This document shows, in pieces, positions 4,173 to 50,942 of a stretch of 64,000 nt of DNA. The number at the start of each line of letters is the position of its first letter. Position 1 is the first letter of the stretch. The notes under the pieces were generated by a model that was not told where the DNA came from, did not search any database, and was given only the letters and a program-made list of their open reading frames with translations. The position numbers were made by a program, and so were the translations under genes. This DNA comes from an uncultured Rivularia sp. Lineage in GTDB: Bacteria; Cyanobacteriota; Cyanobacteriia; Cyanobacteriales; Nostocaceae. The stretch covers positions 736,001 to 800,000 of the forward strand of contig OY762007.1 in assembly GCA_963665115.1 (NCBI GenBank). The letters run 5' to 3'.

Positions 4173-6458
4173 ATGAACAACAACCCTACTGACGCTCCCG
4201 CACAATGCCCCTTTCGTGGAACCCGCGTTGGAGGAGCGCTCGGTTCTAAGCCGCAAACTGATGACTGGTGGCCGAATCGACTTCAGGTGGAGCTGCTTCA
4301 CCAAAATTCACCTCTAGCTAACCCGTTAGGAGATTTCAACTATCAAGAAGCGTTTCAAAAGATTGACTTCCAACAGTTGAAGAAGGATATCAAAACTCTA
4401 CTCACAAATTCAAAAGACTGGTGGCCAGCCGACTACGGCAACTACGGACCTCAGATGATCCGCATGGCATGGCACGCTGCGGGAACCTACCGCATCGCAG
4501 ACGGTCGCGGGGGAGCGAGCCGAGGTATGCAGCGCTTTGCCCCGATCAATTCTTGGTGGGATAACGGCAACACAGATAAATCACGACGGCTGCTGTGGCC
4601 AATCAAGCAGAAATACGGCGCAGCACTAAGCTGGGCAGATTTAATGATTTTGGTCGGCAACTGCTCGCTGGAAATCATGGGTTTGAAGACTTTTGGCTAC
4701 GGCGGTGGTCGCATTGACGCTTGGGAAGCAGATCGCGCTACCTACTGGGGGCCTGAGTTCTGGAACGGTGAACCCTTCGGAGAAAATGGTAAGGAACACG
4801 AGGGACATCCAGATGAGATGGTGACTCGAACAATTCGCTGGGTTGGCGAACCGAAAGACGAATACTACGACCTGGAAAACCCTTTGGGAGCTTCGCACCA
4901 GGCTTTAATTTACGTCGATCCAGAAGGTCCTGATGGCAGCGGAGACCCGATTGCATCTGCCCGCGACATCCGCGAGACTTTTGCTCGCATGGCAATGAAC
5001 GATGAGGAAACTGTAGCGTTGATTGCGGGTGGTCATGCTTTTGGTAAAAGCCACGGTATGGTTGCGGCAGGCAAGATTGGGCCAGCCCCCGAAGGTGCGC
5101 CGATTCAGGCAATGGGCTTGGGGTGGCAGAATCCCGAAGGTACTGGGTTTGCCGAATATACAATGACAAACGGGATTGAAGGCTCATGGACACCAAACCC
5201 CACCCAATGGGACAACAGCTACCTAGAAAATCTCTTTAAATACGATTGGGAAAAAGACAAGAGTCCAACTGGTGCGATTCAGTGGAAGCCAGTTGATCCT
5301 AGTGCGCCAAAGACACCAGATGCCCATAAATCTGGTGTCGAGCATTCCTTAATGATGATGACTTCAGACGTTGCGTTGAAGGAAGATTCTGCTTATCATC
5401 AAGTCTGTAAAAGCTTTCTGGGTGACTTCGAGTACTTTAGCGATACATTTGCGCGTGCTTGGTATAAGCTGACTCATCGGGACATGGGACCAAAAGTACG
5501 CTATCTTGGCCCAGAAGTTCCACAGGAAGACCTGACTTGGCAAGACCCGATTCCACAACTCGACCACGATGTTGTCAATGATGCCGATATTAGTTCTCTT
5601 AAAAACAAGATTTTGGCGAGCGGTCTTTCAGTATCGGCGCTAGTGTCGGCAGCTTGGGCTTCCGCATCAAACTATCGCGACTCAGACAAGCGCGGTGGTG
5701 CGAATGGCGCTCGCGTTCGTTTAGACCCCCAAAAAGATTGGGAAGTAAATCGTCCGCAAGAACTCAGTCAGGTTTTATCCACTCTTGAGCGAATTCAGGC
5801 GGACTTTAACGGCACCCAGTCAGGTAACAAAAAAGTCTCGATGGCAGACCTGATTGTCCTCGGTGGCTGCGCTGCTGTCGAAAAAGCTGCCAAAGATGCT
5901 GGAATTGACACCAGTGTTCCATTCACACCAGGTCGAATGGATACTACTCTAGAAGTGACAGATGTTGAAAGCTTTGAATGGCTCAAACCAGTCTCCGACG
6001 GTTTCAGAAATTATCATAACGAGGCTGTGGGCTATAAGGTGAAGGCAGAGCGCATCTTCCTCGATCGCGCACAGCTGCTGACACTGACCGCACCCGAGTG
6101 GACGGTTCTTGTTGGTGGACTTCGCGCCCTCGACCAAAACTGGGATAATTCCAAGCATGGTATATTCACTGACCGACCAGGTGTTTTAACCAACGACTTT
6201 TTCCGTGTCTTGACCAGCATGGACTACGAGTGGAAGCCAATTGACAATCGCGAGATGCTCTTTAATATTTGCGATCGCGAAACAGGCGAAACCAAGTTTA
6301 CCGCGACACGCTGCGACTTGATTTTCGGTTCTAACGCCGAACTGCGTCAAGTAGCTGAAGTCTACGGAGCCGACGACGGTAAAGAGCGGATGGTTAAAGA
6401 CTTTGTTGCAGCTTGGAATAAAGTGATGATGCTCGATCGCTTTGACGTTAGCGCATAA
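4173..6458 (+). CDS. katG: Catalase-peroxidase
   Basis: [11 protein letters not shown] distal motif, [28 protein letters not shown]-terminal [12 protein letters not shown]. Confidence 0.97.
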
Positions 6459-6483
6459 AGGTGAAATTGTTGTACTGGATTTT

Positions 6484-6551
6484 GTAGGTTGGGTGAAGCG
6501 TTAGCGCAACCCACACAGATATTGGGTTACACTCCGTTCAACCCAACCTAC
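6484..6551. repeat. Short REPIN-like element between convergent katG and parA-like gene
   Basis: GTAGGTTGGGT...ACCCAACCTAC inverted ends. Confidence 0.75.
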
Positions 6552-6593
6552 CACTCGATTACCAATTACCAATTACCAATTCCCAATTCCCAA

Positions 6594-7478
6594 TTAAAGT
6601 TTTTTCAACAATTCCTGAGTCAATTGATTAAAAGCTTTTGAACCTCCAGATTGCGGACTATTTAACACCACTGGCATAAAACTATCAACTGCTTTAGCAA
6701 CATTTACATCAACTGGTATTTGCGTTTGACAAATTTTTTCAGCACCATAATCTTGATAAACGCGATTGATTACTTGTTTATAATATCTTCCAGTTAACAT
6801 ATTGCTGTTGGACATTGTAAACACAATTCCCAACATTGATATATCTATATTTGCCTCGTTCTCGTGACTTTCTTTTAACTGAGCAATGCGTCTTTCTAAT
6901 AACTGAATACCAACCACAGATAAAGGTTCTGGTTTCGCAGGAAGAACGTAAAAATCGCTGGCAGCTAAAGCGCTACGAGTTAAAAGATTATAGCCGGGAG
7001 CGCAATCGAGAAGAATGAAATCATACTCATCACGTACTGGTTCTAAAATCTTACCCAGCAACACTCTTTCAAAACGATTCCAAATTGCTTCAAAATTATT
7101 TTCACCCAAACTTACTGCTTGTTGGTGCAGCATTTGCGACACAATGAATTCATCGTATAAATCGATATCTCCCGGCAGCAAATCAAGTCCTGAAAGGTTA
7201 TTAAGTGAAGGTTGAATAATCTCTTGAATCGATAATTTTTTCCGATTTGGTGATTTGACAATATCATCGATCAAATATCTTAAAGTCTGTCTTTTTTTCC
7301 GCAGTTTAGCAAACTCAATCGGCGACATCAAACTTAGAGTAGCGCTGATTTGAGTATCTAAATCCAACACAAGCACCCGCTTACCGTGATTTTTCGCCAA
7401 ACAAGTAGCCAAATTAACAGTAAGAGTAGTTTTACCAACCCCACCCTTCATATTTGCCGTCGAAATTACATATCCCAT
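6594..7478 (-). CDS. ParA/Soj family ATPase
   Basis: Deviant Walker A KGGVGKTT, LVLDLD, ILLDCAPG. Confidence 0.92.
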   Translation of the reverse strand: MGYVISTANMKGGVGKTTLTVNLATCLAKNHGKRVLVLDLDTQISATLSLMSPIEFAKLRKKRQTLRYLIDDIVKSPNRKKLSIQEIIQPSLNNLSGLDLLPGDIDLYDEFIVSQMLHQQAVSLGENNFEAIWNRFERVLLGKILEPVRDEYDFILLDCAPGYNLLTRSALAASDFYVLPAKPEPLSVVGIQLLERRIAQLKESHENEANIDISMLGIVFTMSNSNMLTGRYYKQVINRVYQDYGAEKICQTQIPVDVNVAKAVDSFMPVVLNSPQSGGSKAFNQLTQELLKKL

Positions 7479-8014
7479 TCTTACAGTTCCTCTGTTAACG
7501 CATTCCGATTTAAGTCAAGCAAACGTATCTATAAAATTCAAAATTACAGCGAGATTTAAGATTTTTTATACTCCAGAAATTGGCATTGATAATGTTTTAT
7601 TATTTAAGGCAGTCAGATTATACCTGTGAGTTGATTATTGGTAAAGCCAATTCATGTATTTCTTTAGATATATAAAATTTCTCTGTAAATCCTCACACTC
7701 GCCTTGGAATAAATTCCCAGGCTAATATACGAAGTCGTCTAAAGACGACTGCATAGGGAATTGAGTAGGTTTTAACTCTTAAGGAACCTAAAACTAATTG
7801 CGTTAAGATTAATAACTTACAAAATTCTTAAAAAGCACAAATAAACCCGATTTCTTGCTGGTTGTATAACGAGATAATTATATTTTTACAAATAGAAACC
7901 CGGTTGCTATAACTGCTGATGTGCAATTAAACGGCGTTTCAACGTACATCTTGCACCATTGTTGTTAAGCCCACATTCCAAGGTGTGAAAGCCAATCGCG
8001 GATACTGCAAAAAA

Positions 8015-10631
8015 TCATTTCAAATCAATATTCTTCGCATACAAACTTTGCAAACGCTGCAACTTAGCCCCAACCTGGTATAGCAAATCACCTTTACCCA
8101 GCAAATAAGCAGCAGCAGTTTTTTTACCACCTAAAACGATTGCAGAATCCGCTTCACTTGCGGTACGTAAAGCAACTCTTCCCGGTAAATTGGAGCGAAT
8201 TATCGGTGTAACCACCTTAGCTTCCGGACGTTGAGTAGCAATTATCAAATGAATTCCCGCAGCCCGTGCCATTGCACCCAAGCGTTTTATACTTTGTTCC
8301 AAAGCACTACGAGATTCTTTCTCAGCCATAAAATCGGCATATTCGTCAAAAATGCAGACAATCCGAGCTAAAGGTTTATCAGCACGTTGATTGTAAGCAC
8401 CCAAGTCAGCACACTCGGTTTTTTCAAATTGCTGATAGCGATATTCCATTTCCGAAACCAACTTATCCATCAGTTTCGATCGCATCTTCACTGTCTTTAA
8501 CTATTTGTGAATACAGCCAAGGCATTTTTTCAAACTCTGGAAAAGTCACCCGTTTGGGATCTACCAGAGCAATTTTTAACTGTTGGGGAGAATAGCGTTT
8601 TAGTAAACTTAAAAGTTGCGATCGCAAAAATTCGCTTTTACCGCTTCCGGTTGTACCGCCGACTAAAAAGTGGCAGGTATTGGGATCTGATAAATCGGCT
8701 TCTATTAACTTTCCTTCTAGATTTACACCGATAGCAATTTTTACCGATGTATTTTCAGCTAATTTTTGTGGCTTCAGATAATCATCGAATAAAGCTGCCT
8801 TCCGATTCGGATTAGGTAAATCGACACTAACATATCCAGCTTGTGGAGAAATCAACGGCGGATTTTCCAATCCCATTTGTATCTGTAAATCCGCATATAA
8901 TTTCTGAATAGAATTAAATTTAACACCCAACTGAGGCTTTAACTTCACCCGAATAAAACTTGGAGCAACAGCAGCCTCAATAAAATCTACACTAATTCCA
9001 AACGACTGTAGAGTAGTTACCAACTCCTCACCAACAGCACCAGCGTTAACAGAATTACTTTCTTCCCCCTTCTCTCCACCTCTTTCCTCTGCGCTCTCTG
9101 CGCCTCTGCGGTTTTTAAATCCATAATCTTCTTTATCTACAGGGATTTGATGAGAATCTACCTCACCACCAAAATAACTTTGACACTTCTCCTGCTGAGA
9201 ACAAATTTCACATAAATAAGGCTGAGTTGTAGCTGGGGGAGAATTAGGCTGAGACGGTTGCCAACTCAACCACTCTTGCATCTGCTGTAACTTGTAGGGA
9301 ATTAGCTGATTTACAGTATCTTCCAATTCTTCCCAGCCATAATAATACTCCTTGAATTCCGGCAAAACGCAGTAAACAGCCGAATCTACAGGTACTTGCT
9401 TTTTCTGCCACAACATATAGCCATACAAAGAAACTTGGGCTAATTGCGCCGAAGGATCGACAGGTTGGTAAGTTTTAAATTCCAATAAACACAACCGCTG
9501 ACGTTCAAAATTATAAATTAAACAATCATATTCTCCCCTAACTTGCTGTCGGCTTCCATTAGGTAAATCAAAATAATGTTCTAGCTGCCGCTCTCCCGAA
9601 ATAAAAGTCTTGCGAATTACGCTGGCAGCACTGCAATAACCTCTATTTACTACGAGAATTTCGGCAAAACGTTTAATAATACCTTGCAATCCCTGCCAAA
9701 CTTGGAAAAGCGGTTGAGCTTTACTAATATCCTTTTTAGTAACTTGCTGTAAATAAGGATAAAATTTAACTTGATAGAAAATCTGCTGCATTTCCGAAGC
9801 AACTTTTTCTACATCTAACTGCGATGCTTCTGGTTTAAATAATTCTTTAAATCTAGCTTCACGCAAAGCTAAACTAACAAATTCATCGGCGGAAGTATGA
9901 AAAACAGAACCAATTCCAGTTACAGTATTGCGAGGAATAAATAATGTCTTCCCGCCAAATTTATCGTTAAGATAAAATAAACGCGGACATTCAAATGCAA
10001 CTCTAACTTTAGTAACGGTTAAAGAAGAACTATCAGTTTTTTTCGCGAACCTGTTTGTATTAGCTTTCATCTTAAACAGAGTATTTTCATTATCAGAATT
10101 AAAATCTAATAAATAGCGATGTACGGCAGCTAAATAAACCACATCCATCGCCGCATAATGTAATTGTTTACTTGAAAGAGGTCGTCGTCTCCAGTCGCTA
10201 GCTCCCCCTTCTGCATCAACATCGGTAAATTGACAAAGTTCTGCTGCTAAAGTTTTAAGCTTTAAATTAGAAGTTTTTAATTTGTAACGAGTAATTTTTC
10301 TAGATATTTTCAGCGTACAGGTGACATTTGGGATTAACTTTCCTCCCAGATATTTTAAATCGAAGCTGGAATTATGAAATACCTTTTCTATCTGAGGATT
10401 AACCATAATTTGGTTAATAAAATATGCTGTTAAATCGGGTTTATCCAACACATCAAAAATATAAGCAAACTCACCCATTGAATCATTAGGGTTAGCCAAT
10501 ACCTGAATTAAAGATAATCTGGGATTGGGAGTCCGACAGTCAGCAACTTCCGTATCCAGCCATAGGATTTTAGAAGAGCGGAATCGATCGATTTGAGTTT
10601 TTATTTGAGTCGCATCTGTCAGGTAGTGCAT
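8015..10631 (-). CDS. Fusion of 3'-5' exonuclease (RNase D-like DEDDy), PD-(D/E)XK nuclease and FtsK/SpoIIIE ATPase; split by one extra base near 8474
   Basis: LWLDTEVAD...FHNSSFDL...YAAMD exonuclease; EYDCL...LEFKT nuclease; GGTTGSGKS, LVDPK, IFDEYAD, IIATQRP FtsK motifs. Removing one A after GCGATCG joins ORFs 8463-10631 and 8015-8491. Confidence 0.85.
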
Positions 10632-39853: not shown

Positions 39854-40973
39854 CTATTCCCCATTCTCCGTTACTTGGTTTTCCTGTCGCAGATAGGCTT
39901 GAATGAAGGAATCTAGTTCTCCATCCATCACGTCTGTTATGGCTGTTGTTTCGATGTTGGTACGCAAGTCTTTTACCATCTGGTAAGGATGGAATACATA
40001 GTTACGTATTTGATTTCCCCAACTTGCTTCCACCATATCACCGCGAATTTCAGCGACTTCTTGGGCGTGTTGTTCTTGAGCCACAACCAACAGCTTTGCT
40101 TTGAGACGAGCAAGGGCTTTTTCTTTGTTTTGCAGTTGCGATCGCTCTTCGGTACATCGCACTGCAATACTTGTGGGCAAGTGAACAATTCGGACTGCCG
40201 TTTCTACTTTGTTGACGTTTTGTCCGCCTTTACCGCCTGCCCTGGATGTAGTAATTTCTAAATCCTTATCGGGAATATCCAATTCTACATTGCCGTCTAT
40301 CTCAGGCATGACTTCTACGCCAGCAAAACTGGTTTGTCGCTTACCGTTAGCGTTGAAAGGAGAAATTCTAACTAACCGATGGGTACCCATTTCCGAACGC
40401 AAATACCCGTAGGCATAGCGCCCGGTAATTTCTAGAGTTACCGATTTTATACCAGCTTCATCTCCATCCGATTTATCGCTTATTGCAACCTTATAACCGT
40501 GACTTTCTCCCCAGCGCGTATACATTCGCAGCATCATTTCCGCCCAATCTTGAGCGTCAGTACCGCCAGCACCGGCTGTTATTGTTAGAGAAGCGCCTTT
40601 GCTATCGTAAGGGCCAGAAAGTAACTGCTGTAACTCCCACTGGTCGAGTTCGCGGCTGAGACTTGTAACGTTAGATACAGCTTCATTCAGTAGCGACTCG
40701 TCGGTATCGGACTCTAAAAGTTCGACAACTGCGCGGGTATCTTCTAAGCTAGAATGCCAGTTATGATACTGTTGCAGATAAGATTTAAGTTCGTTAAGCT
40801 CTTGCAGGGTATCTTGAGCTTGATTTTGATCTTCCCAAAATTCCGGCTGTGCTGCAATTTGTTCTAAATCTTGAATTTTAGCTTTGAGTGCGGGTAAGTC
40901 AAAGATAGTCCTGAGTTTTACCCAGGCGATTAGATAACGTTTCGATTTCCCGTTTGATCTCTAGAACTTCCAT
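39854..40973 (-). CDS. prfB: Peptide chain release factor 2 with programmed +1 frameshift (~372 aa)
   Basis: 24 codons MEVLEIK...QDYL, then CTT-TGA-C, then +1 frame DLPALKAK... with SPF and GGQ motifs. Confidence 0.97.
40898..40912 (-). promoter_or_regulatory. prfB +1 frameshift cassette (AGGA internal SD-like, CTT TGA C)
   Basis: Minus strand reads CAG GAC TAT CTT TGA C. Confidence 0.95.
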
Positions 40974-41117: not shown

Positions 41118-41187
41118 GGTGCGTGACGGCAATTTCAATTTATCGGGCTATGCTTTGATAATTTATCGTAGCCGTCACGCACCCTAC
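41118..41187 (-). repeat. GTAG-led palindromic element (GTAGGGTGCGTGACGGC...GCCGTCACGCACC); copies at 42363-42431 and 43592-43654
   Basis: Three copies delimit the duplicated RF2-paralogue units. Confidence 0.8.
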
Positions 41188-42264
41188 AATTTGAGATAAG
41201 CTTTGGTGAACAAATCAAGGTTTCCTTTCATCACTTCTTCAATGTCAGTTGTTTCTACGTTGGTACGTAAATCTTTAACTTTTTGGTAAGGATGAAAGAT
41301 GTATTCGCGGATTGGGTTATTATCTACATTTTTGGATGATGGTTTTTTGACATCTGTAAGTGCAACACCTTGAGCTTGCATTAATGAAAATAGCTTACTT
41401 TTAACAACAGCTAAGGCTTTTTCCTTATTAAGCAATTGAGAACGTTTATCTCTAGAAGTGAAGGAAATACCAGTAGGAATATGAGTTACTTTCACTAATA
41501 CGCTTCTGCGGTTACTGTTAGGGTTGCTAGGCTGTACATAAAATTCCAAATCCTGTATCGGAATTTCAAATACCGATTCATCTATAATCGGCGTAACTTC
41601 CACCTTTGCAAAACTAGTTTTAATAGCAGCCTTTTTACAAAAAGGTGAAATTCGTTTCAGTTGATGAATTCCTTGCTCGGATTTGAGATATCCATAAGCA
41701 TACTTACCGAAAATTTCTAAAGTCACATAGTTAAAGCCAACCAATTCTCCTATCGACTCGTCCAAAAACCGGAGTTTGCAGTCATGGCGATCGCACCAAT
41801 CATCGTACATTTGTAGCAACATATGTACCCAATCTTGGGAATCTAGATCGTTATTACCAGCAGTAATAGTAATAAAAGCTCCTTTATCATCAAAAGGCTG
41901 ATTCAGCAGGCTGATGATTTCAACGTGTTTGAGTTGGCTGCTTAAGAAATCATAGTTAGTTTGCAATTCTTGCTGTAACTGCTCGTCAGCTTCAGATTCC
42001 AAAAGTTCTAAAGCTGCTTTGGCATTATTCAAACAAGTTCGCAATTCTTGATATTTTTCTTGTTCGTAGAATATCAAATAGGTTAATTCTTGAAGGGAGT
42101 TATGAGCAATTACGGTATCTTGCCAAAATTCAGGTTTTATAAGTAGCTTTTCTAGATCCCTTACTCTTGCACTTATTTTATGGATGTCAAAGACAGTGTT
42201 GAGGTTGGCTGAGGAACTTAGATAATGTTTCGATTTCGCGTTTTACTTTTGATAGTGCCAGCAT
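41184..42264 (-). CDS. RF2 paralogue A, GGQ-less, with CTT-TGA-C frameshift site at 42186-42192 (~359 aa if shifted)
   Basis: 25 codons [25 protein letters not shown], then +1 frame DIHKISARVRDLEK...PEFW...RISPF...YIFHPYQKVKDLRT; GGQ loop replaced by QPSNPNSNRRS. Confidence 0.85.
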
Positions 42265-42433
42265 ATTTTTCTCTTGTTGAGACACGTTAAATGAATTGTA
42301 GTACAAAAATGGGGATTGGTGATAGGGAATTGGGCATTGGGGATTGGGGATTAATAACAGGTGGTGCGTGACGGCAATTTCAATTTATTTCGTTATGTTT
42401 GATAATTTATTAGAGCCGTCACACACCCTACAA

Positions 42434-43514
42434 TTAGAAAGCTTGTTTGAGATACGCTTTGGTAAACAAATCTAAGTTTCCTTTCATCACTTCTTCAATG
42501 TCAGTTGTTTCTACGTCGGTACGTAAATCTTTAACTTTTTGGTAAGGATGAAAGATATATTCGCGGATTGGGTTATTATCTACATTTTTGGATGATGGTT
42601 TTTTGACATCTGTAAGTGCAACACCTTGAGCTTGCATTAATGAAAATAGCTTGCTTTTAACAACAGCTAAGGCTTTTTCCTTATTTTGCAATTGGGAACG
42701 TTTTTCTTTAGAAGTAAAGGAAATACCAGTAGGTATATGTGACATGGTTGCCCAAAAGTATCTTCCGTATGGACACACTTCACTGATTACTTCTAAATCT
42801 TTCATTGGAATCTCAAAATCCATCGACTCATCCACAATCGGGATAACTTCTACATCTGCAAAGCTGGTTTGAATTCTAGAATCTTCACTAAATGGTGAAA
42901 TTTGTCTTAATTGATGAATTCCTTGCTCGGATTTGAGATATCCATAAGCATACTTACCGAAAATTTCTAAAGTCACATAGTTAAAGCCACCCATTTCTCC
43001 TATCGACTCATCCACAAGCCGCGATTTGCAGTCATGGCTTTCACTCCAATGACAATACATCCGTAGCAGCATTTGCACCCAGCATTGAGAATCTGCATCA
43101 TTATTAACAGCAGTAATAGTAATGAAAGCTCCTTTATCATCAAAAGGCTGATTCAGAAGATTAAGAATCTCAACGTGTTTGAGTTCGTTGCTTAAGAAAT
43201 TGAAGTTGACTAGTAATTCTTGTTCTAACTGCTCGTCTGCTTCTGACTCCAGAAGTTCTAAAGCTGCTTGGATATTACCTAAACGAGTTTGCCATTCTTG
43301 ATATTGTTCTTGCTCGCAGAATATCAAATAGATTAATTCTTGAAGGGAGTTATGAGCAATTACGGTATTTTGCCAAAATTCAGGTTTAATAAGTAGCTTT
43401 TCTATATCCCGAATTTTTGTATTTAGTTGATGGATGCTAAAGACAGTCTTGAGGTTGGTTAAGGAACTTAGATAATGTTTCGATTTCGCGTTTTATTCCC
43501 AATATTTCTAACAT
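42434..43514 (-). CDS. RF2 paralogue B, GGQ-less, with CTT-TAG-C frameshift site at 43436-43442 (~359 aa if shifted)
   Basis: GAGG RBS, 25 codons [25 protein letters not shown], then +1 frame SIHQLNTKIRDIEK...QISPF...; GGQ loop replaced by SEVCPYGRYFW. Confidence 0.85.
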
Positions 43515-43808
43515 GATTTTTCCTCGTTAGGTCACATTACATAAATAGTAGTACAAAAATGGGGATTGGGGATGGGGAATTAATAAAAGATGATGCGTGA
43601 CGGCAATTTCAATTTATTTCGTTATGTTTGATAATTAATCGTAGCCGTCACACAACGGCAATAACGCGGGAGGAATATCCACACCGCGTTTTGCCTCCCC
43701 TACAAATAAATTACTTTTTCAGTGACAGGAAAAGGGGATAGGGGGATGAGGAGAAATATTTAAAATTCTTAACTCATAACTCCTCACTCCTAACTCCTAA
43801 CTAATTTC

Positions 43809-44543
43809 TTAGTCTCTTCCGCCGCCGCTAATGGCAATCAATAGACGTAAGATGAAGATGAATAAGTTGATGTAGGTAAGGTACATCGATAAAGCTGCGG
43901 GTAAATATTCGTCATCTTTATAGGTACGGGGTAGTACGTAGAAGTCAACTACCGCAGCACCAACAAACAACAATACACCTAAGCCAGAAATACCGATTTC
44001 CAACCATCCAGGGGTATATACGCCAAATAAGGAAAGTCCTAATTGAATAACTAAAACTGCAACTAAGGCTATTACACCCAAACGAACAGTTTTTGCTAAA
44101 GCCATACCGTCAGTATCAGAAAGGTTAGAACCAATCTGACGAGCGGCGATAAAGGTTATTCCACAACCAAGGGCGGCGATACCAATACCCTCAATGCCTA
44201 CTCCTTGGGTTCTCAACGCTACAAATACTAATCCGCTAAGGGTGTAGCCAGATAAGAGACTGTAGGCTGCTAACAGTGGTAATGCAACTTGCTTATTACC
44301 TTTAGAAGCTACATTTTGAGCAACAAAAAACAAAATTAGTTCTACGATTATCGCGCCAATCAAGGTAGGGAAAAATAGTTCGGGATGATTGCGGATTACT
44401 CCTAACCCACCATAAGTTCCCAAAGCAGTAAGTACTAATCCACCACCTACGTAAGGAAGTGCATTAGCAATTACGTTTGGCCCTACCAGTGCTTGATTTT
44501 TAGCGTCGCGAATGGCGTTTCGGAAATTGCTCGTATTACTCAT
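43809..44543 (-). CDS. Bax inhibitor-1/YccA family membrane protein
   Basis: About 7 TM helices; AALSMYLTYINLFIFILRLL C-terminal motif. Confidence 0.88.
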   Translation of the reverse strand: MSNTSNFRNAIRDAKNQALVGPNVIANALPYVGGGLVLTALGTYGGLGVIRNHPELFFPTLIGAIIVELILFFVAQNVASKGNKQVALPLLAAYSLLSGYTLSGLVFVALRTQGVGIEGIGIAALGCGITFIAARQIGSNLSDTDGMALAKTVRLGVIALVAVLVIQLGLSLFGVYTPGWLEIGISGLGVLLFVGAAVVDFYVLPRTYKDDEYLPAALSMYLTYINLFIFILRLLIAISGGGRD

Positions 44544-45984: not shown

Positions 45985-47648
<1,664 letters not shown>

Positions 47649-50399: not shown

Positions 50400-50942
50400 A
50401 TGGAATACCGTAGAGCAAAAATAGAGGGAGGTACTTTCTTTTTCACGGTTGTAACTCAAAATCGCCGCAAATTTTTGTGTCACGAAGAAAATATTGTATT
50501 GCTAAGAAAGATATTCAAACGGGTAATGCAGCAGCACCGCTTTACAATCGACGCAATAGTAATTTTACCCGAACATTTGCATTGTATTTGGACTTTACCA
50601 CCAAACGATGATGATTTTTCAACTCGTTGGAGCTTGATTAAAGGTGGTTTTAGTCGTCTTTGTCATCCCAAGTATAAAGGAAAAATATCTGCATCGCGCC
50701 AGCGTAAAAAAGAACAAGGAATTTGGCAACGTCGTTTTTGGGAACATCAAATCCAGGATGAAGCAGATTTTATTTACCATGTGGATTATATTCATTACAA
50801 CCCGGTGCGACATGGATATGTAAAAGCACCCAAGGATTGGAAATATTCAAGTTTTCATCGCGATGTTAAACGAGGTATTTATGATATTGATTGGGGTGCA
50901 GGAGTAGAATTAGAATTTCCCGATTGGGTGGGAAATGAATAA
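50400..50942 (+). CDS. REP-associated tyrosine transposase (RAYT)
   Basis: GGTFFFTVVT, LPEHLHCIW (HUH), WQRRFWEHQI, YIHYNPVRHG, WKYSSF; flanked by REPs. Confidence 0.93.
   Translation: MEYRRAKIEGGTFFFTVVTQNRRKFLCHEENIVLLRKIFKRVMQQHRFTIDAIVILPEHLHCIWTLPPNDDDFSTRWSLIKGGFSRLCHPKYKGKISASRQRKKEQGIWQRRFWEHQIQDEADFIYHVDYIHYNPVRHGYVKAPKDWKYSSFHRDVKRGIYDIDWGAGVELEFPDWVGNE

Follow-up and report, generated by a model that had tools for sequence, protein, structure and literature searches.

GGQ-less paralogues of release factor 2 upstream of cyanobacterial prfB, with a frameshift site and an exchanged loop at the former catalytic tip

RESULTS

Two GGQ-less copies of release factor 2 precede prfB

The window, a 64,000-nucleotide stretch of contig OY762007.1 from an uncultured Rivularia sp., carries two full-length homologues of release factor 2 (RF2), here called copies A and B, directly upstream of the canonical prfB gene and, like it, on the minus strand. 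The two copies repeat with a period of 1250 bp, and coordinates and translation bear out the original prediction that each consists of a 25-codon first frame followed by a 334-codon second frame. Copy A starts at ATG 42264 and its second frame ends at 41184; copy B starts at ATG 43514, downstream of a GAGG ribosome-binding site, and its second frame ends at 42434. The features of the locus are the following.

39854..40973, minus strand: canonical prfB (RF2), with the shift site CAGGAC TAT CTT TGA C at 40913-40898 and GGQ at 40220-40228
41118..41188, no strand: REP-like hairpin between A and prfB (z -6.3), whose GTAG end supplies the stop codon of A
41184..42264, minus strand: copy A, GGQ-less RF2 paralogue, PCRF/RF-1 product of 359 aa via a +1 frameshift
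41316..41345, minus strand: switch-loop region of A, Trp319 equivalent lost
41487..41543, minus strand: loop of A in place of GGQ, the "NSNR" allele; a near-identical strain (run X4) and genomes G003 and G007 have another loop here
41640..41648, minus strand: SPF motif of A, kept
41829..41861, minus strand: helix-alpha5 tip of A, AGNNDLDSQDW, glycine pair replaced
42186..42201, minus strand: frameshift site of A, CAACAC TGT CTT TGA C, with an RF2-read stop at 42189-42187 and the Shine-Dalgarno (SD)-like hexamer lost
42363..42432, no strand: REP-like hairpin between B and A (z -4.6)
42434..43514, minus strand: copy B, GGQ-less RF2 paralogue, Pfam PCRF and RF-1, 359 aa via a +1 frameshift
42572..42601, minus strand: switch-loop region of B, Trp319 equivalent lost
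42743..42790, minus strand: loop of B in place of GGQ, the "GRYF" allele, identical in nucleotides (100%) to the loop of genome G022
42890..42898, minus strand: SPF motif of B, kept
43079..43111, minus strand: helix-alpha5 tip of B, AVNNDADSQCW, glycines lost
43436..43451, minus strand: frameshift site of B, CAAGAC TGT CTT TAG C, with an RF1-read stop (CTT TAG C, 43442-43436) and the SD-like hexamer weakened
43594..43654, no strand: REP-like hairpin upstream of B (z -3.6)
43809..44543, minus strand: Bax inhibitor-1 (BI-1) family membrane protein, which usually flanks the site upstream whether or not a paralogue is present, listed as a context gene with no implied role in the system

Copies A and B share 273 of 356 residues with each other (77%) and 163 of 358 and 167 of 358, respectively, with prfB (46-47%). 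Alignment with prfB confirms that both have kept SPF and lack GGQ; the switch-loop Trp-Gly and the glycines at the tip of helix alpha5 are gone from A and B alike. A prfB-type shift site had been claimed for both copies, which holds for the CTT TGA C of A, whereas B has CTT TAG C with an RF1 codon. The second-frame products of A and B score 283 and 271 bits against TIGR00020, under its cut-off of 370 bits, and that of prfB scores 479, over it. The comparison with RF2 structures proposed alongside the original prediction turned out in its favor: the predicted model of A (pLDDT 73.5) has the RF2 fold with 1gqe as its best PDB match, at an rmsd of at least 14 Å to all structure matches listed, and this model and the Pfam domains together indicate that the four-domain release factor fold (PCRF plus RF-1) is retained in the paralogues. 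An assembly artefact is excluded, since both replaced loops are found again, with 0 differences, in contigs of runs X1-X3; these runs may themselves have supplied this DNA.

Three REP-like hairpins in all bound the two paralogue units; a REP-associated tyrosine transposase lies at 50400-50942. The neighborhood of the site is made up of housekeeping genes rather than a defense island, and no RtcB was seen among the neighbors. PADLOC 2.0 returned 0 family matches for A, B, a Nostoc member of the family and the BI-1 neighbor, and a scan of the locus for promoters and terminators gave signals at or under chance level.

The paralogues form one clade with a patchy distribution

Among 27 genomes of the same genus, 16 carry a copy or remnant between the BI-1 gene and prfB, 12 of them intact, 1 open to the contig end and 3 broken. 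Over 61 loci, which include 40 further regions taken, mostly for a second match, from among the matches listed by a search of 251 genomes of the host's family, we found 37 intact copies (34 genomes, 9 genera), 1 open to the contig end and 14 broken or fragmentary, so that the disabled share at these loci is 14 of 52 copies. Outside the host's taxonomic family, an intact copy lies upstream of prfB at 13 of the 13 Microcoleus loci found with query P0140, one further genome has a copy upstream of prfB (G319) and another has one on a different contig (G367). In genome G204 the paralogue adjoins BI-1, with no prfB within the fetched region. Altogether, the 52 intact copies that we examined come from at least four taxonomic families and lie nearly always directly upstream of prfB. 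In an order-wide profile search, 3 of 282 genomes outside the host's family had a second match; that of G460 was rejected as a paralogue, this genome having two ordinary prfB genes. The profile search of the whole phylum (401 genomes) mixes paralogues with prfB among the matches listed. The Microcoleus copies came to light only through the P0140 query, so that the counts outside the family are lower bounds. As for the synteny with prfB that the original prediction wished to see recorded, GGQ-less copies lie beside prfB in several groups of cyanobacteria; many relatives have none or a broken one. The paralogue is therefore patchy and short-lived at its locus, often broken or lost in close relatives.

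One tree places 37 intact copies on one side of a branch that separates them from 53 prfB sequences (SH-aLRT 100). In a second, rooted with nine distant RF2 sequences, 30 selected paralogues form one clade within cyanobacterial RF2 (support 95). Both are quick trees with long branches, where long-branch attraction is possible, and their rows hold no PrfB3 sequence. One old duplication with many later losses is the simplest reading of this distribution. The named close relatives, from Rivularia, Calothrix and Nostoc, are labeled "PCRF domain-containing protein" or "peptide chain release factor 2" in the databases, and such labels hide members of the family in annotations. No phage-borne member was found among six relatives on viral contigs, all of which keep GGQ, or in 30 of 71 phage records listed, none of those 30 being a cyanophage. 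Likewise, no fusion to an effector domain was found among 7991 longer candidates, which is a weak test.

Elements that act on the ribosome are lost to different degrees

We compared the motifs of the 52 intact copies with those of 68 prfB genes. GGQ is present in 1 of the 52 (68/68 in prfB) and in three database proteins, and the switch-loop Trp-Gly-x-Gln in none (0/52 versus 67/68). The GxGG of the alpha5 tip, whose glycines have a role within the codon-recognition domain, is found in six copies (6/52 versus 68/68). SPF is the most frequent survivor of these elements, with 38 of 52 copies against 68 of 68 prfB genes, and with 24 of 37 copies in the 61-locus set. The core motifs RSQ-x-x-NK, IRxY and KDLR of domains 2-4 are largely kept, which could reflect either folding or ribosome contact, and the mean net charge is -9 in the paralogues versus -21 in prfB.

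According to the available text of earlier work, GGQ is the hydrolysis center of RF2, and alpha5 and SPF make up the domain that recognizes the codon (PMC3472500, PMC5897788). Free RF2 takes a compact form in which about 20 Å separate the motif that reads the codon from GGQ (PMC6561943); on the ribosome Trp319 stacks on A1492 and stabilizes the extended (open) form, while compact RF2 can also bind the 70S ribosome, with its loop toward the P-site tRNA (PMC5378476). From the loss of GGQ we infer that the paralogues cannot release peptides, and in the light of the reported role of Trp319 they probably do not dock on the ribosome in the open state. The original prediction had pictured non-catalytic readers of stop codons. 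Its first half stands, in that these are maintained, non-catalytic derivatives of RF2; the idea that they read stop codons is weakened by the losses of the Trp motif, the alpha5 tip and, in part, SPF. Moreover, these elements vary in many alleles, and such variation is not easily reconciled with a target that stays the same, as the decoding center does.

The frameshift site is kept in all intact copies examined and its stop codon varies

In prfB, +1 shifting rises when the factor that reads the internal stop is scarce, TAG being read by RF1 and TGA by RF2. The CTT-stop is kept in 52 of 52 intact copies, and we found no copy with fused frames. The stop itself is TGA in 30 copies, TAG in 20 and TAA in 2, compared with TGA in 68 of 68 prfB genes; TAG is used by 12 of 13 Microcoleus copies and also occurs in this genus. 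A published survey, in its available text, records TAG in 0 of 8,164 prfB motifs (PMC12421855). Three genomes (G000, G003 and G026) have two intact copies, and in all three a TAG copy comes first and a TGA copy second, with unlike loops. In this genus and in Microcoleus, CAAGAC or CAACAC stands in the place of the CAGGAC of prfB, a weaker SD-like hexamer (the 16S tail is GAUCACCUCCU), and frameshifting may therefore be infrequent. By analogy with prfB, a TAG/TGA pair would respond to shortage of both RF1 and RF2. CTT TAG C is a candidate for an RF1-controlled frameshift. Alternatively, and more plainly, a dead product gives no feedback, so that the identity of the stop may simply drift at low output.

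The loop in place of GGQ falls into exchanged classes

The loop that replaces GGQ occurs in discrete classes, which do not track the rest of the gene. The loop of B is the same, nucleotide for nucleotide, as that of G022, while other regions of the two genes are 73-89% identical; conversely, A and its G003 orthologue match at 39% of positions within the loop and at 90-100% outside it. The sharpest case is the near-identical strain of run X4, which differs from the window at 10 positions in 1327 nt over prfB: in its A copy, 31 substitutions and 6 gaps all fall within 41440-41548, and none in 41549-41660. In Microcoleus, 6 of 12 comparisons have loops of 55-82% identity between flanks of 85-97%. 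Within the genus, divergence of the loop (0.45 versus 0.11-0.29) is the highest of all the intervals compared, and its synonymous tree length reaches 6.7 (1.4-3.2 elsewhere) at an omega of 0.28, although this length is inflated by the alignment of unrelated alleles and the alignment of unlike alleles is itself uncertain. Taken together, these comparisons indicate that the loop is represented by a few old alleles, each conserved, which move between backbones and genomes, and that it behaves like a balanced specificity locus.

A mosaic signal over the whole gene is modestly above background, with 9 of 101 pairs versus 0-5% in six control genes. Arg (11.7%) and Trp (5.8%) are abundant in the loops, and Asp is almost absent. 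One observation counts against strict complementarity of paired loops: the database proteins P0018 and P0028, a likely tandem pair whose contigs have equal lengths, share one loop class. Silent donor cassettes were sought elsewhere in the genome, with nothing beyond chance matches of 15-16 nt, and a diversity-generating retroelement was dropped as an explanation, since the alleles differ in length.

Signatures of purifying selection

Pooled dN/dS is 0.35 for the paralogues (16 disjoint pairs) and 0.06 for prfB (11 pairs). Maximum likelihood estimates of omega for nine segments in two groups lie between 0.19 and 0.62, each below 1 in 18 of 18 fits (2dL 7.8-152). The 23 codons ahead of the shift are under constraint (omega 0.33, p 8e-7), as is the stretch from the shift to the first internal TTG (omega 0.57, p 5e-4); the constraint ahead of the shift indicates that selection sees the frameshifted product and not just one started internally. 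No class of positively selected sites is supported in either group (2dL 1.5 and 0.0) by a custom grid-mixture test on per-segment trees. The Microcoleus copies are under weaker constraint (omega 0.69), and in their loop omega is 1.9, without significance (p 0.28). At synonymous sites, the Microcoleus paralogues are closer to each other than the adjacent prfB genes (dS 0.08 versus 0.24), which suggests lateral spread, with the caveat that the query favored close relatives.

These patterns indicate that the paralogues are maintained as proteins by purifying selection. The argument made at the outset against simple decay is upheld by the omega estimates, each of which stays below 1 for the nine segments in either group, and by the codons ahead of the shift. 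Of the signs of decay then named, dN/dS near 1 is not seen (it is about 0.35), whereas frequent disabling mutations partly are, given the share of broken copies above.

DISCUSSION

A proposed role as decoys for a variable antagonist of release factors

Several options had been offered for the function of the paralogues, and the one that fits the allele pattern best is that of a decoy. Old, exchanged alleles at an exposed tip, together with patchiness, frequent gene loss and the disappearance of the ribosome-active elements, fit a partner that varies between environments. We therefore tentatively propose, as a possibility that we hold with less than even confidence, that the paralogues are decoys for a variable antagonist of release factors and are made in larger amounts when termination slows. 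In the mechanism that we envisage, a dead RF2 copy with neither GGQ nor the Trp switch would, from established RF2 biology, remain in the compact form and do no harm; when termination at the internal stop is slow, +1 frameshifting would rise and with it the amount of decoy; and the variable loop would be the bait surface for a phage protein or the toxin of a rival, the variable elements sharing one face in the compact form. The logic has a counterpart in the proposal, offered as such and not as a test, that inactive copies of host enzymes serve as decoys in multicellular bacteria (PMC7159879, available text). The mechanism is inferred, and no antagonist, PADLOC match, defense neighborhood or, among the relatives and records examined, phage member was found.

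It is tempting to extend the proposal to the tandem arrangement. A TGA copy would report shortage of RF2 and a TAG copy shortage of RF1, so that the pair could cover both release factors. That A and B are such tandem, self-inducing decoys, one sensing RF1 through UAG and the other RF2 through UGA, with different bait loops that titrate phage or toxin proteins, seems to us unlikely as a complete account. If true, it would bring to light an unknown class of weapons directed at termination, along with a natural programmed frameshift under RF1 control.

Alternative functions

Slightly less improbable than this tandem version, though still unlikely, is that the paralogue is a non-catalytic ligand of the ribosome, a compact protein in the A site that protects, parks or delays idle or paused ribosomes, for instance during desiccation. 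Balon, a hibernation factor derived from aeRF1, occupies the A site of idle ribosomes, and the carriers in Nostoc, Rivularia/Calothrix and Microcoleus are largely terrestrial or mat-forming. The predicted four-domain fold is intact, the core motifs are largely kept, as is SPF in many copies, expression stays tied to termination, and compact RF2 is described as binding 70S (PMC5378476). Yet a constant target predicts constant surfaces, and the alpha5 tip, the SPF region and the loop come in many alleles; the gene is missing or broken in many close relatives; and the conserved motifs may be purely structural.

More doubtful is a dead RF2 that binds particular RNAs, stabilizing or regulating them, and owes its choice of target to the basic and aromatic loop. 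Plant PrfB3 offers a precedent (PMC5897788), and a PrfB3 cluster ranks third among the ESM Atlas feature matches (0.94). The shift in net charge and the Arg and Trp content of the loop would suit such a role. Against it, a host RNA target would not favor allele swaps between near-identical strains, and PrfB3 is described as a land-plant duplication that groups with plastid RF2 (PMC3472500), so that the likeness is probably convergent.

We consider it still less probable that the paralogue is a conditional poison, in which termination slowed by a phage or toxin leads to more shifting and the resulting dead factor jams terminating ribosomes and stops the growth of the affected cell in the filament. 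RF2 mutants in GGQ are dominant-toxic, six copies keep the alpha5 GxGG, and the invariable CTT-stop, with no frame-fused copy, would fit a product that is harmful when made constantly. Deletions that fuse the frames are in any case rare, however, a protein that has lost the Trp switch and the alpha5 glycines should bind stop codons less well, and the loop alleles are left unexplained.

Least probable of all is a weakly selected relic of an old duplicate, which has no specific function, is kept by mild selection against misfolding and is reshuffled as it recombines with prfB, tandem copies and REP-bounded units: broken copies, the Microcoleus omega, the weak SD-like element, the hairpins at the unit ends and background-level recombination in neighboring genes all suit it, but not one clade at the same site in at least four families, omega below 1 in every segment including the loop, frames intact through several substitutions per synonymous site of tree length, or the suggested lateral spread in Microcoleus (subject to the query caveat above).

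Relation to known systems

To our knowledge, all class I release factors of bacteria are taken to carry GGQ. Our search of the literature, at the level of listings and abstracts, found no description of a maintained, full-length GGQ-less RF2 family in bacteria, and section 2.4 of a release-factor survey covers RF1, RF2, ArfB and PrfH, with no inactive bacterial RF2 in its available text (PMC6514570).

The closest relative is RF2 itself (PrfB; TIGR00020; PF03462 plus PF00472), which has the same fold, the 25-codon first frame, the CTT-stop-C +1 site and an SPF that the paralogues often keep. The paralogues differ from it in the missing GGQ and switch-loop Trp, the altered alpha5 tip, a score under the TIGR00020 cut-off, a higher dN/dS, a patchy distribution and a shift stop that may be TAG or TAA.

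Plant PrfB3/mtRF2b (AT3G57190) is likewise a full-length RF2 derivative without GGQ beside an active RF2. PrfB3 has lost SPF as well, is encoded in the nucleus, is specific to land plants and binds petB RNA, as far as the available text describes it (PMC5897788, PMC3472500); SPF is kept in A and B, and the paralogues are bacterial, in tandem with prfB, under frameshift control and equipped with an exchanged loop. PrfH (RFH, RtcB2-PrfH) is another sporadic accessory release factor paralogue and has been linked to biological conflict, but in the available description it retains the catalytic glutamine, has no domain 1 and is found next to RtcB (PMC6514570). Identity with PrfH is ruled out for our paralogues by the presence of domain 1, the missing GGQ, TIGR03072 scores of 31-37 against a cut-off of 167, and the lack of an RtcB neighbor among the genes seen. 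Inactive proteins of the baeRF-1/Dom34 type share a poorly conserved, glutamine-less catalytic loop (PMC6514570, available text) but have the unrelated archaeo-eukaryotic fold, are linked to hibernation genes and have no frameshift control. Finally, the decoys of Kaur et al. 2020 share the proposed logic, in which an inactive copy binds the attacker of the active host protein, and differ in being domains fused into NTPase-driven systems; the term "release factor" is absent from the main text available (PMC7159879).

The paralogues are thus real and form an apparently undescribed variant of the dead-release-factor theme, set apart by the TAG shift site and the exchanged loop. That loop, at the old catalytic tip, points to a variable partner of release factors, for which the alleles would be ready-made baits.

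Gene conversion and repeats at the paralogue units

Over their 3' 294 nt (41190-41483 in A and 42446-42739 in B), the two GGQ-less RF2 paralogues of the window are 95% identical, as against about 80% over the remainder of their length. Because of this difference in sequence identity, we regard the 3' ends of A and B as the product of a recent gene conversion, which ended short of the loop that replaces the GGQ. In the Microcoleus loci (L184-L196), the 25-codon first frame of the paralogue is closely similar to the prfB first frame of the same host, suggesting that the 5' end underwent gene conversion from prfB, yet with the TAG of the frameshift site left in place. We also observed the following repeat-related features in the window:

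41118-41188, 42363-42432 and 43594-43654, REP-like hairpins, GTAG-ended
50400-50942, REP-associated tyrosine transposase (NF047646), some 7 kb from the hairpins

Genome-wide, the GTAG-ended hairpin gave 26 blastn matches and 63 matches by pattern, and similar hairpins border the paralogue copies in most same-genus loci. These hairpins may promote both duplication and collapse of the unit.

Neighboring genes and inserts

Several further genes lie beside the paralogues in other genomes:

L184:2122-3705 and other Microcoleus loci, radical SAM + TPR gene between the Bax inhibitor-1 family gene and the paralogue
L139:57-847, Papain fold toxin 2 ORF, then a small unnamed ORF, just upstream of the G319 paralogue copy
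L104 and L106, ~5700-9400, 4.3 kb insert with 868-aa and 276-aa ORFs on the opposite strand

The Microcoleus interval at times holds other inserts as well. The small ORF in L139 is a possible immunity gene. The 4.3 kb insert parts prfB from a broken paralogue copy in two genomes (G261 and G117). Separately, a phosphoglucomutase-like gene in the window (45985-47642) is apparently split between two ORFs, 46890-47642 and 45985-46995, whose frames overlap, and L034 has a similar short 5' ORF.

Variants of the paralogues and of prfB

A minority allele still carries GGQ within the loop (locus L085 of genome G277; proteins P0030, P0035 and P0036), and in these copies the alpha5 tip and switch-loop Trp are altered. 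This allele may represent the ancestral form of the loop, or else a variant with catalytic activity. In G003, a same-genus genome with two intact paralogue copies, prfB (L032:8489-9610) has two additional G ahead of the shift site, giving a single reading frame; this reflects either genuine loss of autoregulation or an assembly error in a homopolymer. Finally, six viral contigs of 40-396 kb (L178-L183) encode RF2 relatives that keep both GGQ and SPF.
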